This document shows positions 7,358 to 34,941 of a DNA stretch of 64,000 nucleotides, one piece after another. The stretch's first letter is position 1, and each line of letters opens with the position of its first letter. The DNA is from a phage, in the sequence record PZ386948.1; one strand, given 5' to 3'. The position numbers and the translations under genes are program-made. Below the pieces are notes generated by a model. It was not told the origin of the DNA. It saw nothing but the letters and a program-made list of their open reading frames with translations, and ran no database searches.

Positions 7358-7666
7358 TTAATCTTCTATGATATCTCTATCATATCCAAGTGAAATGAGA
7401 GTTTCTTTGAAGTGTTTAATGTTCTTTTGTCTAGAATCATTAATGAAAATGACTGGATAACGAATGTTAAGAGATGTGAATCCAGCGCGTTTAGCAAGAG
7501 ATACAATCAGTGGACGATCATACTCAATCTTACCGTTATTTGTAAGAACTTTATAGAAAGTAAAAGGAGCATTGAGCTCCTTTAGAAGTTTTGTAACTGA
7601 TTGACATCCAGGACAACGACCTACTTCATCTGGAATTCCATAGACTTCAATCTTATTTTGTTTCAC
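7358..7666 (-). CDS. nrdH: Glutaredoxin-like protein NrdH
   Basis: 102 aa; CPGC redox motif near the N-terminus; adjacent to nrdG/nrdD. Confidence 0.7.
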   Translation of the reverse strand: MKQNKIEVYGIPDEVGRCPGCQSVTKLLKELNAPFTFYKVLTNNGKIEYDRPLIVSLAKRAGFTSLNIRYPVIFINDSRQKNIKHFKETLISLGYDRDIIED

Positions 7667-29710: not shown

Positions 29711-30127
29711 TTAAATGTAAATATTTTTGCCGTAATACTTATACCAGTGTGGCTTCATTAAAATTTTTTCATCGAGTCGTTGTTGACTCAACTTAATAGC
29801 TGATTTGCATGGATTATAATCATTTTTCCATTCTACTGGAATATCGCTGATGTCAGGAACTTCAGTATCTTTTATACTGAACCCGCGTTTTAAGCATTCC
29901 GTTATAATGTCCGATTGACGCTTTCGCAAAAATTCTAACTTATCGTAAAAGAAAGTAACATGACCAGAACCTAAAATAAATTTAGAAGATATTTTAAAAT
30001 CTTTAACGCGCTTACCGTTTGCCACATGCTTACGAACTATACCAAAAACACGCGGCAATTCACGGTATTCTGCGATTAAATGTTGATCAGCAAGTTCAGA
30101 TACTAAAGTCAAATTAATACGAGTCAT
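29711..30127 (-). CDS. denV: Endonuclease V (pyrimidine-dimer DNA glycosylase)
   Basis: 138 aa; [39 protein letters not shown]..., roughly 75% identical to my recollection of T4 DenV. Confidence 0.9.
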
Positions 30128-30150
30128 TTTATCCCTCCAAGTAACTGTGA

Positions 30151-30183
30151 ATATACTATCACAATTCTAGGAGAAAGTAAACA
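30151..30183 (-). promoter_or_regulatory. T4-type early promoter upstream of denV
   Basis: GTTTAC (30177-30182), 17-bp spacer, A/T-rich -10. Confidence 0.5.
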
Positions 30184-30186
30184 ACT

Positions 30187-30717
<531 letters not shown>

Positions 30718-31158
30718 TTAAAAGAGGCTGTTCATTATTCGGTAAAGTGAAGGACCCATCACATATTGCCACTGAGTACGAGGAATAAGGGCAAAAGCAT
30801 CCATCTCTGGAATCATAACACCATCTTTATTTTCAAAATAAGACTCGCAATGGCAATTTCTGAACATCTCATGCTCTACTGGAATCGTATAATAAAATAA
30901 CTGTAAGTCTTTATTACTAGAATATTTAAATACACCTAGGTCTTCTAGAAGGTCTGGATTATAATTGCTAAAACCGGTCTCTTCTAAGCATTCTCTTTTT
31001 GCAGCTTCCAGTGCATTCAAATCAGAACTTTCTACGCGGCCCTTTGGAATATCCCAGCGATGTGCCATCATTCCAGGCTTACGAGAACCAGTAACCCGAC
31101 CCATAAATAAATCTTTATCTTCTGTCATAAAGATAATACCAGCTGATAGTGTTTTCAT
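30718..31158 (-). CDS. nudE: Nudix hydrolase
   Basis: Nudix box GRVESSDLNALEAAKRECLEETGF; ATG at 31158 with AGGAAA RBS (track starts at 31173). Confidence 0.8.
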   Translation of the reverse strand: MKTLSAGIIFMTEDKDLFMGRVTGSRKPGMMAHRWDIPKGRVESSDLNALEAAKRECLEETGFSNYNPDLLEDLGVFKYSSNKDLQLFYYTIPVEHEMFRNCHCESYFENKDGVMIPEMDAFALIPRTQWQYVMGPSLYRIMNSLF

Positions 31159-31346
31159 TTTAATTTCCTGCATTCAGTGATAAAGTTATTTAAATTTTGA
31201 GTATATTTCTTTTCATCAAAAATCTTTTGTTGTCTGCGTAAACGCCATGGCATTTCAATGAACATACGCCATATTCCTGATAATACTGCTGCTGTAAAAA
31301 TATTAACAAGTATAGTTAAAAGAACCCAATCTCCTATTCTGTCCAT
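31155..31346 (-). CDS. Small membrane protein, tandem paralog set (..ECRKLK tail)
   Basis: 63 aa; one TM helix; C-terminal tail related to the two ORFs upstream. Confidence 0.45.
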   Translation of the reverse strand: MDRIGDWVLLTILVNIFTAAVLSGIWRMFIEMPWRLRRQQKIFDEKKYTQNLNNFITECRKLK

Positions 31347-31644
31347 TGGATTTTTTTATAAAAAAGTAAAATACGAACGATGATATAGGAAGACTAATGA
31401 TATACCACAGAAGAACCTTCTTATCTGTGAACCAATCAGCATTCGTTAACTTAGCGCGACCGTTTTGAATACATACGAACTTATCATCTGTTACAGTAAA
31501 TGGCTTAGCTGCTTGATATCCCATTCTAAACTCCCTAATCAACAAATTTTTCATATCTTCGGAACAACCATTCCAGTCAACTCTATCAACTGAAATGCCA
31601 TCATCCCCATCATCTAAATCATACCAGCGAGTTTTTAAAATCAT
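31303..31644 (-). CDS. Hypothetical protein with C-terminal TM helix
   Basis: 113-aa ORF. Confidence 0.45.
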   Translation of the reverse strand: MILKTRWYDLDDGDDGISVDRVDWNGCSEDMKNLLIREFRMGYQAAKPFTVTDDKFVCIQNGRAKLTNADWFTDKKVLLWYIISLPISSFVFYFFIKKSNGQNRRLGSFNYTC

Positions 31645-32003
31645 TTAATTTTCCTACAATCACTCACAAACTCTTTCATTGACTCATTTTCAATATAAGA
31701 CATGTAGCTATTATATTCTTTTAATTGTATTTTGTAATCTTTTTTTCTTTGCCAATTTATTTTAAAATTATCATAATGAAAATATAAAATGATACCAAAG
31801 AATGAAAACAATGAAATAATTTTAGTATAACAAAGCTCACTCCAAACTTCTGTTATATTTACTGTGCCGTCGATGTTTAAAATAAGACAGTCAATTAACA
31901 ATCCAAAAAGACTACCTGCAAGAGCTGCAGCCAACGCCACAGCAAAAATTAAAAATGACTCAGAAAACGAATATTTGACTTTATTTAGTTTTGGCTTTTG
32001 CAT
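31641..32003 (-). CDS. Membrane protein, tandem paralog set
   Basis: 120 aa; two TM helices; tail ...MKEFVSDCRKIK. Confidence 0.5.
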   Translation of the reverse strand: MQKPKLNKVKYSFSESFLIFAVALAAALAGSLFGLLIDCLILNIDGTVNITEVWSELCYTKIISLFSFFGIILYFHYDNFKINWQRKKDYKIQLKEYNSYMSYIENESMKEFVSDCRKIK

Positions 32004-32398
32004 CGTGATTCCTTAACAAATTTCATAATTTCATCAAATTCATACGCAGCAAGTTTAAGCTGATGTTCCTTTTTAATCTTTTTACACTGTGCTTTCCAAT
32101 CACGCACGCGTTTACGATAATGCCTTCCTTGATACCAGTATCCTACCCAATTTACGGGTACTAATAAAAGTGGAACTATTAATGGAAGAATTAGCATTAA
32201 CACAAGTATTTCGCCAGAATCAATATCAGTCATAACATCTAAAACACCTCCAATAATCAATAGAATTACAAATGATATGAGTATAACAGGACCTATTAAC
32301 ACATCAGTAGAAATTATCTGACGCTTTAATTCATACTTCAACGGTTTACTTGGAAGGTATAGTGATGGCTTTGACATATTCTCTACATTCCTTAACAA
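31985..32398 (-). CDS. Membrane protein, tandem paralog set
   Basis: 137 aa; two TM helices; tail ...IMKFVKESRCKSQN. Confidence 0.5.
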   Translation of the reverse strand: MLRNVENMSKPSLYLPSKPLKYELKRQIISTDVLIGPVILISFVILLIIGGVLDVMTDIDSGEILVLMLILPLIVPLLLVPVNWVGYWYQGRHYRKRVRDWKAQCKKIKKEHQLKLAAYEFDEIMKFVKESRCKSQN

Positions 32399-32960
32399 AT
32401 TTTTCTAGTAATAAATCACTTTCAAAATTGGGATTTTCTACAAATTTATCAAAAAGATCATCAACAATAGTTAAGATATTCTTTTTACTAAGAATACGTT
32501 TATTTTCATGCTTCGTTTCAGAATCAACTATAAGAGTAAAGAAATATTTCTTGCCCTGAAATTTTACAGTAGTATCAATATAAAATAAATTTGACTTTTG
32601 TAAATTACGTTTAAACCATGCGTCACTTAAACTATAAACACCGAGATAATCAAAATCGTCGTTTAAATAACAAACCGTCCATTCAGGAGAAATGAAATCA
32701 GTAAATTCAACATCAAAATCACACGTCAATGAATGAATTGATTCAATACTGTTAATGAGTATTCCAGGACGTATTAAAGACTTTTTACCTCTAGAAAATC
32801 TTCCGGAAAGGCTTTCATCAGTTTCATATGAAGACCCCCAATAGTAATTACGTCCTTCTGCCATGCGTTTAAGAGCATTTAGTAATTGGTCTGGAACATC
32901 AACCTGTCTTTGGAACTCTTCAAACATTGAATTGAAATCACTTTGCATTTTCATTTTCAT
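32346..32960 (-). CDS. Hypothetical protein
   Basis: 204-aa ORF with GGAG RBS. Confidence 0.55.
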   Translation of the reverse strand: MKMKMQSDFNSMFEEFQRQVDVPDQLLNALKRMAEGRNYYWGSSYETDESLSGRFSRGKKSLIRPGILINSIESIHSLTCDFDVEFTDFISPEWTVCYLNDDFDYLGVYSLSDAWFKRNLQKSNLFYIDTTVKFQGKKYFFTLIVDSETKHENKRILSKKNILTIVDDLFDKFVENPNFESDLLLEKFVKECREYVKAITIPSK

Positions 32961-32974
32961 TCCTATTTACTCCA

Positions 32975-32996
32975 AGTATAAGGGGCCGAAGCCCCT
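32975..32996 (-). terminator. GC hairpin (aggggc-cgaa-gcccct), weak terminator
   Basis: 6-bp stem with CGAA loop; U-tract imperfect. Confidence 0.4.
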
Positions 32997-33001
32997 TATC
33001 A

Positions 33002-34352: not shown

Positions 34353-34380
34353 CAAAAAGCCCCAACCTTTCGGTCGGGGC
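34353..34380 (-). terminator. Rho-independent terminator, copy 1 of an identical 31-bp element
   Basis: gccccgacc-gaaa-gguuggggc hairpin followed by UUUUU; identical to 34909-34939. Confidence 0.7.
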
Positions 34381-34388
34381 TAAGAATG

Positions 34389-34862
34389 TTATTTGATTTG
34401 TTTAGCAGACCAAATGCGATCTTTAATAATTTTTTGGATGTCTTCAACATACACAAGAGAGTGAGCATGTGGATTATCTTTGAAACTATAAGCACGAGCT
34501 AGTTTTTGGCCTTCAGTTTTGATTACTAAAAGCTCTTTAAGGATAGCTTCATATTTGGAGATAATTCCTTTAACAATATTTTTTTCTTGTGCAGCTTTAG
34601 GATCTGCTTTAGGAGCAGGTTTACCCGAAGCCTTTGCAAAAGCAGCGCCAGTAGCAACTAAACTTTTCCAGGCCATACTAACTGCATTTCCCGTAAATCC
34701 TTCCGCTTTCATGTCGCGTGCGAACTGGAATCGCGATTCATCAGAAGCATCTTTATAAGAATATTTACCCGCTGCAATGGCTGCTTTTGCGACAGCTTGA
34801 ATTTCGGTGCTAGATGCTTCATTTAACACCGCTTCATTTAAAAATTGAGTATATGATTTCAT
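34389..34862 (-). CDS. Internal-protein-like protein with capsid-targeting sequence
   Basis: 157 aa; N-terminus MKSYTQFLNE|A resembles the T4 IP targeting sequence MKTYQEF... with an LxE cleavage motif. Confidence 0.6.
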   Translation of the reverse strand: MKSYTQFLNEAVLNEASSTEIQAVAKAAIAAGKYSYKDASDESRFQFARDMKAEGFTGNAVSMAWKSLVATGAAFAKASGKPAPKADPKAAQEKNIVKGIISKYEAILKELLVIKTEGQKLARAYSFKDNPHAHSLVYVEDIQKIIKDRIWSAKQIK

Positions 34863-34898: not shown

Positions 34899-34906
34899 TA
34901 TTTATA
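34899..34906 (-). promoter_or_regulatory. Late promoter (TATAAATA) for the IP-like gene
   Basis: Exact TATAAATA on the minus strand about 37 bp upstream of the ATG. Confidence 0.55.
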
Positions 34907-34907
34907 C

Positions 34908-34935
34908 TAAAAAGCCCCAACCTTTCGGTCGGGGC
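34908..34935 (-). terminator. Rho-independent terminator, copy 2 of the identical 31-bp element
   Basis: Same hairpin as 34353-34380 with U-run. Confidence 0.7.
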
Positions 34936-34941
34936 TAAGCC

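Follow-up and report, generated by a model that had tools for sequence, protein, structure and literature searches.

Overlapping gene junctions and a recurrent C-terminal tail around the e.2, e.3 and e.4 genes of a T4-type phage

Results

Gene content of the locus

The window, by which we mean the whole 64,000-nucleotide stretch of record PZ386948.1, has 100% DNA identity to Shigella phage CM8 (Tequatrovirus). Its minus strand carries homologues of the Tequatrovirus genes e.5, e.4, e.3, e.2 and nudE, and synteny comparison gave the same order as in T4 (e-nudE-e.2-e.3-e.4-e.5), with CM8 differing from T4 in being without ipII and ipIII beside e. Three open reading frames (ORFs) singled out in an original prediction, at 31155-31346, 31641-32003 and 31985-32398 on the minus strand, are indeed present; they are homologues of the already catalogued T4 genes e.2, e.3 and e.4 and not new genes. 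Homologues number in the hundreds, with lengths of 162 aa (e.2), 120 aa (e.3) and 130 aa (e.4) and about 70-100% identity within Tequatrovirus, and the T4 genes, which share these lengths and the order between e.5 and nudE, are direct orthologues. The features of the region are as follows.

30718..31158, minus strand: nudE (Nudix hydrolase), the next gene after the array; Pfam NUDIX, E=3.8e-13; its Shine-Dalgarno (AGGAAA) and ATG lie within the e.2 tail codons
31155..31346, minus strand: C-terminal fragment of e.2 (the first ORF of the original prediction), 63 aa, with the predicted second transmembrane (TM) helix and cytoplasmic tail ...NNFITECRKLK; PHROG 2203 positions 106-166, E=1.5e-28; unannotated in MK962750
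31303..31644, minus strand: N-terminal fragment of e.2, a 113-aa ORF with the predicted soluble N-domain and first TM helix (hydrophobic segment at residues 78-96); PHROG 2203 positions 1-107, E=9e-44; PHROG 35263, E=2e-64; annotated CM8_00120; out of frame past the A7 run
31351..31357, minus strand: homopolymer A7 (T7 on the plus strand), which shifts the e.2 frame; A6 in the intact relatives compared, A5 in T4 and T4T
31641..32003, minus strand: e.3 homologue, 120 aa; predicted TM helices 19-37 and 57-75; tail ...KEFVSDCRKIK; PHROG 2330, E=1e-58 (residues 1-118); its stop overlaps the e.2 start (ATGA)
31985..32377, minus strand: e.4 homologue, 130 aa from ATG 32377; predicted TM helices 31-49 and 57-75; tail ...KFVKESRCKSQN; PHROG 2604, E=5e-71; overlaps the e.3 start by 19 nt
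32346..32960, minus strand: e.5 homologue, 204 aa, no TM segment; tail ...EKFVKECREYVKAITIPSK with the shared motif; PHROG 2607, E=4e-110; overlaps the e.4 start

PHROG matches for e.3, e.4 and e.5 ranged from E=1e-58 to 4e-110. A full-length match to PHROG 2330 and its place between e.4 and e.2 assign e.3 to its family, as do a full-length match to PHROG 2604 and a place between e.5 and e.3 for e.4; the latter gave no match in the Pfam copy searched, though its homologues carry PF26873. The third predicted ORF exists, but its start is the ATG at 32377, giving the 130 aa of all homologues, and not the TTG at 32398.

A split e.2

The e.2 gene of CM8 is by descent a member of PHROG 2203/Pfam PF26896 (166 positions) that is disrupted or mis-sequenced here, with two fragments covering positions 1-107 and 106-166. 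Instead of an uninterrupted ORF of ~162 aa, the A7 run gives ORFs of 113 and 63 aa, and removing one A from the run (31351-31357) yields a 162-aa e.2 that is 99% identical to intact homologues (P0001). The run is A6 in ESh29, L003, L004 and UFV09 and A5 in T4 and T4T; ESh29, 99.8% identical to CM8, has an intact e.2 of 489 nt, and in a spread sample e.2 was intact as a single-piece match in 47 of the 49 full-coverage Tequatrovirus rows. In T4 the gene is split at the same run, with a second frame change downstream in the NC_000866 reference, and the T4T record labels e.2a and e.2b ‘probably split of e.2’. A sequencing error, and not a real mutation, could account for the A7 run. Programmed frameshifting or transcriptional slippage at the run was rejected, as the downstream frame needs +1, most relatives have A6 and T4 has A5.

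The ORF at 31155-31346 makes up the C-terminal third of e.2 and does not stand as a separate gene. No Shine-Dalgarno was seen in the sequence upstream of its ATG, and its separate translation was therefore judged unlikely. It should not be handled as a 63-aa small membrane protein, being the tail end of a frameshifted e.2. It follows that the three ORFs, which had been described as consecutive, are not strictly so, because the first is part of e.2, whose 113-aa ORF at 31303-31644 went unmentioned.

Membrane architecture

Using Kyte-Doolittle hydropathy (19-residue window, threshold 1.6), one segment over the threshold was found in the 63-aa ORF and two each in e.3 and e.4, bearing out the one or two TM helices foreseen for each. 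Intact e.2 has two hydrophobic helices, as do e.3 and e.4, and all three share an architecture of two TM helices followed by a basic tail of 37-49 aa. They are predicted to be small two-pass inner-membrane proteins, and the distribution of charge suggests an N-in/C-in topology in which a short acidic loop faces the periplasm and a basic, helical tail lies in the cytoplasm.

An AlphaFold2 model of e.4 (pLDDT 66.8) has helices at 24-48, 54-108 and 111-127, and a Foldseek search of BFVD with it returned its own family and one unnamed 119-aa protein (E=1.3e-3), with no others. The e.2 model, built from 18 homologues, was set aside as unfit for a fold search because its pLDDT was 51.5. Herpes LMP1, CrgA, the Bfi1 immunity protein and the AKT1 channel came up in Pfam, NCBIfam, PADLOC and PDB sequence searches and were rejected as sub-threshold matches driven by TM composition.

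Similarity is confined to the termini

The three proteins had been proposed to be paralogues. Profile-profile comparison (hhalign) of e.2 with e.3 matched 13 C-terminal residues only (probability 8.8%), and of e.3 with e.4 only 17 N-terminal columns (probability 1.7%). An e.3 profile run against 1.84 billion representative proteins found e.3 relatives and no e.2 or e.4. Once the first 12 and last 14 residues were removed, shuffle-controlled Smith-Waterman alignments between families gave z-scores of -1.5 to 2.4. No similarity runs through the TM body as it would in a single family: e.2, e.3 and e.4 are not demonstrable paralogues on these sequence comparisons, their similarity being confined to the termini.

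The tails are another matter. The ends quoted in the original prediction (FITECRKLK, EFVSDCRKIK and FVKESRCKSQN) are correct, and an alignment of tails does find them alike above chance. When the last 22 residues of the 133 window ORFs of >=60 aa were compared, the best non-self match of the e.2 tail was e.3 with a score of 43, against 23 for the best unrelated ORF. The e.4 tail departs from this pattern; it is closest to the tail of e.5, not to those of e.2 or e.3, and, reading FVKESRC, it is a poorer fit to the consensus than the other tails. Six-frame translation of the 64 kb gave 5 matches to F[VI]x[ED][CS]R, a motif defined after the data had been seen, against 0.35 expected from shuffles, and four of the five lie 3-11 residues ahead of the stop in the consecutive genes e.5, e.4, e.3 and e.2.

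The soluble e.5 thus also bears the motif F-[VI]-x-[ED]-[CS]-R, and the motif coincides with the ribosome-binding site and start of the next gene; because of these two facts the likeness of the tails is in part a property of the gene junctions and not a trait of a membrane family.

Codon layout of the junctions

The codon layout at the four borders, read on the minus strand, is given below, with the next gene's signals in capitals.

31155..31184, minus strand: e.2/nudE junction, ttt atc act gaa tgc AGG AAA tta aaA TGA
31641..31670, minus strand: e.3/e.2 junction, ttt gtg agt gat tgt AGG AAA att aaA TGA; TGYAGGAAA in common with the e.2/nudE junction
32001..32023, minus strand: e.4/e.3 junction, aaa ttt gtt AAG GAA tca cgA TGc; holds one copy of a 16-nt repeat, 32008-32023
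32375..32402, minus strand: e.5/e.4 junction, aaa ttt gtt AAG GAA tgt aga gaa tAT Gtc; holds the other copy, 32387-32402

At e.3/e.2 and e.2/nudE the stop and start overlap as ATGA, with AGGAAA 5 nt ahead of the ATG, whereas the overlaps are 19 nt at e.4/e.3 and 32 nt at e.5/e.4. The e.4 and e.5 tails have an exact 16-nt repeat in common, a length reached in 1 of 300 shuffles. Counting against a start signal of this kind at e.5/e.4 is the long Shine-Dalgarno spacing, 11 nt after AGGA. Because the tail codons contain the next start and Shine-Dalgarno, the translation of these genes is probably coupled across the junctions.

Conservation and gene absence

The arginine codon of the motif varies by genus (AGG in Tequatrovirus, AGA or CGA in Mosigvirus, CGT in Dhakavirus), and the other motif codons vary as well (Cys TGT/TGC, Phe TTT/TTC, Ile/Val ATT/ATC/GTT/GTG). 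The residues F, I/V, C and R are retained in orthologues only 29-39% (e.2) and 36% (e.3) identical overall, and an additional two-helix Mosigvirus protein has the C-terminus NLENFIKECRGK. Scanning IMG/VR with the e.3 alignment gave 4 loci only; a degenerate junction pattern gave 52 stretches, 11 of them real (Dhakavirus e.2-like and Mosigvirus e.3-like) and the remainder rejected as chance matches or a ParA ribosome-binding site.

In ~10% of Tequatrovirus records e.2 is missing. Its absence is precise in T2, PST, ECO07P5 and L006, where the e.3 tail is joined to the nudE start through GATTGCAGGAAA followed directly by ttaaaATG; the absent stretch lies exactly between two copies of TGCAGGAAA, and the join occurs on two different flank backgrounds among these four. 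The arrangement without e.2 could instead be the ancestral one, into which the gene was inserted later, and not the outcome of a deletion. In UFV05 and UFV09, e.4 and e.2 are naturally fused in frame as an e.4::e.2 chimera.

Expression and dispensability

In T4 the transcripts of these genes are classed as early and all four proteins have been detected (PMC9697503 supplements), and CRISPRi knock-down of e.2, e.3 and e.4 was scored ‘Not Fit’, that is, no fitness defect (PMC11879866 supplements). The HIDEN-SEQ main text does not mention e.2, e.3 or e.4. No late promoter was found within 31100-33000, and the nearby minus-strand TATAAATA sites are only those at 30695-30715, ahead of e. No holin, antiholin or spanin family was matched in Pfam, PHROGs or NCBIfam, and neither sequence nor profile comparison gave a family match to Imm or Sp.

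Discussion

We consider it likely that the locus is a set of T4-type membrane genes, e.2 (split here) to e.4, whose tails are dual-coded gene junctions also selected as peptide, and whose products are dispensable early factors. The shared tail is best read as a dual-coded junction whose consensus, TTT-RTN-AAG-GAA-TGY-MGN-AAA-TGA, spells F-I/V-K-E-C-R-K-stop. The Shine-Dalgarno of the next gene would be supplied by AAGGAA (the K-E codons) or AGGAAA (the R-K codons), and that gene's start codon falls within K-stop (AAATGA) or, in e.4, within the R-C codons (cgATGc). Some version of this junction occupies four successive borders, e.5/e.4, e.4/e.3, e.3/e.2 and e.2/nudE. Such repeats also provide short stretches of homology at which recombination could occur, in keeping with the clean lack of e.2 in certain relatives. 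We infer that the proteins act as accessory factors of early infection that the phage can do without.

Could the likeness of the tails be a mere nucleotide by-product, the peptide being functionless and reflecting only T4-type initiation regions (AAGGAA or AGGAAA plus ATGA) lying in upstream genes? The next Shine-Dalgarno and start fall exactly on the K-E, R-K, K-stop and R-C codons, unrelated contigs use the same nucleotide string, there non-coding, as the ribosome-binding site of a ParA-like gene, and the motif is also on the soluble e.5. We nevertheless think this explanation improbable, since F, I/V, C and R, none of which lies at a Shine-Dalgarno or start position, persist in three genera through synonymous switches (Arg AGG/AGA/CGA/CGT), and since only 5 six-frame matches occur in 64 kb despite many genes with similar ribosome-binding sites. 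The persistence of these residues makes it look as though the tail peptide is itself also under selection, and it is most likely a cytoplasmic contact motif common to proteins made together. A second possibility, somewhat doubtful in our view, is that e.2 (its C-terminal half), e.3 and e.4 are true paralogues after all, arising by serial tandem duplication of a two-helix gene with its upstream junction, the bodies having diverged while the doubly constrained ends stayed alike. It would account for their common architecture of two helices and a basic 37-49 aa tail, for the alike N-termini of e.3 and e.4 (MQKPKL and MSKPSL) behind upstream junction DNA with 16 nt identical, and, if the duplicated unit was offset, for the tail on e.5. 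The e.3 protein also matches the e.4 PHROG over residues 9-118, nearly its full length (E=1.1e-3), the e.4 model has its 119-aa BFVD match (E=1.3e-3), and the UFV05 and UFV09 chimera is in frame. Against it, none of the hhalign, 1.84-billion-protein and shuffle-controlled comparisons found similarity between the bodies, tblastn with e.4 or e.3 hit a single place in every record but one and showed no cross-match in the sampled rows, and e.2 bears an unrelated 75-aa N-terminal domain. Were duplication correct, e.2, e.3 and e.4 would have one function in common.

The original prediction had also suggested, from a position next to the lysozyme gene, that these are superinfection-exclusion, immunity or lysis-timing factors. 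They are not in fact adjacent to that gene, as nudE lies between. Since the lysis genes of T4 are scattered around the genome, position in any case carries little information on a role in lysis. Lysis timing is disfavoured because the T4 transcripts are early, 31100-33000 holds no late promoter and no holin, antiholin or spanin family is matched; neither late expression nor co-regulation with the endolysin, as for a lysis protein, was found. Being predicted small inner-membrane proteins made early is compatible with exclusion or immunity, laboratory dispensability is usual for accessory exclusion genes, and e.4 weakly matches a Bfi1 family immunity protein, though below threshold (E=0.02; 14.8 bits, where the cut-off is 100). 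Taking in also the lack of an Imm or Sp family match and the fact that T4, T2 and CM8 have e.2 either disrupted or missing, with no linked lysis or exclusion phenotype in the material examined, we regard this set of roles as unlikely.

Returning to the dual-coded junctions, a broader proposal can be put forward tentatively: that the F-[IV]-x-E-C-R-K tail, with its Shine-Dalgarno and overlapping start, is a junction cassette linking accessory genes in Tequatrovirus, Mosigvirus and Dhakavirus, and is at once a coupling device, a docking peptide and a recombination site. If so, the cassette would couple the translation of neighbours, and the otherwise unrelated e.5 (soluble), e.2, e.3, e.4 and APCEc01_171 would have a common cytoplasmic docking peptide. 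The motif is kept as peptide in three genera and marks borders where genes come and go, and for this reason it offers a concrete handle on the early T4 gene block. There is also a caution here: alike C-terminal tails of neighbouring phage genes may reflect overlapping translation-start signals, and a codon-level check should come before a protein motif is inferred.

Three known systems bear comparison with this locus. T4 Imm and Sp, from the same phage group, are inner-membrane proteins that are small, made early and non-essential; e.2, e.3 and e.4 would resemble them in each of these respects, although sequence and profile comparison found no similarity to either. Translationally coupled overlapping genes likewise show ATGA stop/start overlaps with a Shine-Dalgarno inside the upstream ORF; what sets this locus apart is that its upstream codons also keep their peptide in three genera and that the junction recurs at four borders in succession. 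PeSLs are intergenic units of an early promoter and a terminator stem-loop (PMC2839356; PMC4122927). Like them, the junctions are short repeated regulatory sequences bordering non-essential genes in a plastic region; no promoter or hairpin was found in the junctions, whose repeats differ from PeSLs in lying inside coding sequence and in carrying a ribosome-binding site, a start codon and a conserved peptide. Recombination between PeSL copies removes or exchanges a gene, and the loss of e.2 precisely between two junction copies points to a comparable presence/absence difference here. Should the cassette proposal hold, the junction would be a portable recombination site for precise gene gain and loss, a coding counterpart of the intergenic PeSL cassettes.

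Gene content and the split e.2 gene

Shigella phage CM8 (MK962750, Tequatrovirus) matches the 2.5 kb surrounding these genes at 100% identity, and ~500 other T4-like phages do so at 90-99%. The minus-strand order is denV, e (lysozyme), nudE, a split e.2, e.3, e.4, e.5 and e.6. From e to e.6 this is the order of T4; the internal-protein genes ipII and ipIII, which lie between denV and e in T4, are absent from CM8, where denV directly adjoins e (window 30127-30187, compared with 1356-2504 of the T4 locus, L002).

Features of the region
31155-31346, minus: 63-aa ORF, positions 106-166 of PHROG 2203
31303-31644, minus: 113-aa ORF, positions 1-107 of PHROG 2203
31351-31357: A7 run within e.2
31641-32003, minus: e.3, PHROG 2330 (E=1e-58)
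31985-32377, minus: e.4, PHROG 2604 (E=5e-71)
e.5, minus: PHROG 2607 (E=4e-110)
nudE, minus: additional Pfam match, NUDIX

The e.2, e.3 and e.4 genes are already catalogued. GenBank labels on homologues of e.3 and e.4 ('sulfurtransferase' or 'DNA primase') and of e.6 ('host specificity protein') look like annotation artefacts, as no support for them was found.

The original prediction named three small membrane-protein ORFs, of which e.3 and e.4 are genuine but the 63-aa ORF is only a fragment of a frameshifted e.2. It matches the C-terminal part of PHROG 2203, a 166-position "membrane protein" profile, and we do not regard it as an independent gene because no Shine-Dalgarno sequence precedes its ATG. 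The 113-aa ORF, missing from that set, supplies the remainder, and the overlap of the two sits around the A7 run; removing one A restores a 162-aa protein 99% identical to intact homologues (e.g., P0001). An A6 run with intact e.2 occurs in ESh29, 99.8% identical to CM8 along the compared stretch, and A6 is also found in UFV09 and two other comparison loci (L003, L004). Intact e.2 matched in a single piece in 47 of 49 full-coverage Tequatrovirus rows (tblastn, spread sample), and the 162-aa form accounts for ~580 member sequences, summed over protein clusters, versus ~40 for truncated forms. Given these run lengths and intact relatives, the CM8 split is a singleton homopolymer change, either genuine or caused by a sequencing error. 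T4 and T4T carry A5; the T4 reference record (NC_000866) has a second frame change farther downstream, and T4T is annotated with e.2a and e.2b, "probably split of e.2". Relative to the A6 of most phages, this homopolymer has thus both contracted (A5, T4) and expanded (A7, CM8), e.2 being broken either way; the site is either a mutational hot spot or one where sequencing repeatedly goes wrong.

A common C-terminal tail at four gene junctions

Related tails had been claimed for the three ORFs. On alignment the similarity is real and exceeds chance, but the set comprises four genes, including the soluble e.5. When the C-terminal 22 residues of each of 133 ORFs were ranked without bias, the e.2 and e.3 tails were reciprocal best matches (score 43 vs 23 for the best unrelated ORF), the top three matches of e.5 were e.2, e.3 and e.4, and the best match of e.4 was e.5. 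The e.5 and e.4 tails have in common an exact 16-nt repeat (32008-32023 and 32387-32402), a length seen in just one of 300 shuffles. The motif F[VI]x[ED][CS]R, picked after the tails had been inspected so that its count is illustrative, has five hits in the window translated in six frames vs 0.35 expected from shuffles, four of these lying 3-11 residues ahead of the stops of e.5, e.4, e.3 and e.2. The fifth, FINDSR (7430-7447, minus), lies in an unrelated 105-aa ORF, 23 residues short of its stop, and is probably chance.

Junction DNA: tail codons and start of the next gene
e.5/e.4: aaa ttt gtt AAG GAA tgt aga gaa tATG
e.4/e.3: aaa ttt gtt AAG GAA tca cgATG
e.3/e.2: gag ttt gtg agt gat tgt AGG AAA att aaATGa
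e.2/nudE: aac ttt atc act gaa tgc AGG AAA tta aaATGa

Within each tail, the codons for K-E or R-K form a Shine-Dalgarno-like AGGA 6-7 nt ahead of the next ATG (11 nt at e.5/e.4), and the terminal K-stop forms an ATGA overlap. The e.3 start codon is contained within the R-C codons of e.4, whose final residues CKSQN are the codons of e.3 MQKPKL in a different frame. Some of the resemblance, namely R-K and K-stop, is thus dictated by the start of translation of the gene that follows. Upstream of these junctions, between e.6 and e.5, lies a strong UUCG-tetraloop hairpin (ATAAGGGGCTTCGGCCCCTTAT, 32978-32999) with no T-run on the coding strand, followed by an e.5 ribosome-binding site containing GGAG, the RegB cleavage motif of T4.

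In L018, L020-L024, L032, L034-L036 and other ~52 kb IMG/VR contigs, a 276-aa ParA-like gene (MTRQATTYVIGNFKGGVGKT...) has the pattern ttYat.GAGGAATGCCGTAAATGA as its ribosome-binding site and start, so the junction nucleotides can exist without encoding a protein tail. The tail motif itself is found again in two further genera, Mosigvirus and Dhakavirus. Across lineages the tail codons vary: arginine is AGG, AGA, CGA or CGT, cysteine TGT or TGC, phenylalanine TTT or TTC, and isoleucine/valine ATT, ATC, GTT or GTG. Mosigvirus APCEc01 has tails ...QFIMECREY (e.5-like), ...EFVKEIRCK (e.4-like) and ...NFIKECRK (e.3-like); its two-helix, 101-aa protein APCEc01_171 (435-740 of the APCEc01 locus, L007) ends in NLENFIKECRGK; and Dhakavirus e.2 orthologues, 29-39% identical overall, end in NSFIEECRK or NEFIKECRK. 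Since change outside the Shine-Dalgarno and start codon is only synonymous, the comparison indicates that the tail peptide itself is under selection, beyond the translation-start constraint. Similarity to the e.2 protein's second transmembrane helix, DRIGDWVLLTILVNIFTAAVLS, is seen at the N-terminus of APCEc01_171, NRIGLLTIFVSLFYAALSV.

The three proteins had also been called paralogues. Most whole-protein pairs between families gave z=3.4-6 in shuffle-controlled Smith-Waterman comparisons, but with the first 12 and last 14 residues trimmed z fell to -1.5 to 2.4, whereas orthologues remained at 10-58. Family alignments compared with hhalign gave a 13-residue C-terminal match for e.2 vs e.3 (E=0.0038, probability 8.8%), a 17-column N-terminal match for e.3 vs e.4 (E=0.029, probability 1.7%) and nothing meaningful for e.2 vs e.4. 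The e.3 profile retrieved 7 of 1.84 billion representative proteins, all e.3 relatives or fragments thereof; tblastn with e.4 or e.3 hit one place per record, bar one record, with no cross-match between families in sampled rows. The sole hint of body-level similarity is e.3 vs the e.4 PHROG (E=1.1e-3). On these sequence comparisons e.2, e.3 and e.4 are not demonstrably paralogues.

Membrane topology

The predicted transmembrane character held up, with two hydrophobic segments in each protein and none in e.5 (Kyte-Doolittle, 19-residue window, threshold 1.6).

Hydrophobic segments
Reconstructed e.2: two, 78-96 and 106-124
e.3: two, 19-37 and 57-75
e.4: two, 31-49 and 57-75

N-termini and C-terminal tails carry a net charge of +3 to +9, and the inter-helix loop is acidic in e.3 and e.4 and neutral in e.2. 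Read by the positive-inside rule, these charges suggest hairpins of N-in/C-in orientation, with the tails in the cytoplasm. The AlphaFold2 model of e.4 (pLDDT 66.8) has helices at 24-48, 54-108 and 111-127; that of e.2 was discarded for poor quality.

Discussion

The original observation was partly confirmed and its interpretation partly supported. The junction-coded tail seems to be previously undescribed and is a modest feature. Family and structure searches gave no functional lead. In T4, RNA of e.2, e.3, e.4 and e.5 is classed early, and the proteins were detected early (e.4 and e.5), middle (e.2) and late (e.3) (PMC9697503 supplements). CRISPRi-ART knock-downs of T4 e.2, e.3 and e.4, listed as "conserved hypothetical, predicted membrane protein", were "Not Fit", that is, without fitness defect (PMC11879866 supplements). 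Early RNA and the absence of a late promoter motif on the coding strand in 31100-33000 disfavour the suggested role in lysis timing; the data are compatible with a possible role in exclusion or in another early host-directed process. We infer that e.2, e.3 and e.4 would be dispensable accessory inner-membrane proteins, their production possibly coupled with that of e.5 and nudE, and the conserved cytoplasmic tail may be a contact motif common to them.

The junctions may also bear on gene loss. Tequatrovirus records hold e.4 in 504, e.3 in 499 and e.2 in 448 cases, so e.2 is missing from ~10%. It is absent in T2, PST, ECO07P5 and an IMG/VR locus (L006), and in these four the e.3 tail runs directly into the nudE start, GATTGCAGGAAA/ttaaaATGaaaaca. 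Such a junction is the expected product of a putative crossover within TGCAGGAAA, common to the e.3/e.2 and e.2/nudE junctions. Flanks are CM8-like in T2 and T4-like in the PST group, and these two backgrounds suggest at least two events, or exchange at a later stage. An in-frame e.4::e.2 fusion, with e.3 removed, is present in UFV05 and UFV09. A 703-nt ENA contig (P0193) joins a 35-aa e.4 N-terminus to a helix-turn-helix domain (PF08279), probably through chimeric assembly.

Adjacent genes with a common C-terminal tail at the junction are found a second time at 2367-3161 of L007, where three small soluble proteins in a row have the ending G-x-W-V-(S/A)-S-S-x-x-C; in two of the three genes, TAAGGAA comes after the stop and is the next gene's ribosome-binding site.

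Elsewhere in the window, a 157-aa ORF (34389-34862) is flanked by two identical copies of a 24-nt stem-loop, AGCCCCGACCGAAAGGTTGGGGCT, at 34358-34381 and 34913-34936 (minus), each with a T-run after it, and a late-promoter motif, TATAAATA, lies at 34899-34906. The arrangement has the look of a PeSL-like regulatory cassette, repeated on either side of an accessory gene. For the tail junctions and the loss of e.2, PeSL-mediated modular shuffling in T4-type hyperplastic regions (PMC2839356) is the closest described concept, but PeSLs are intergenic promoter-terminator units.
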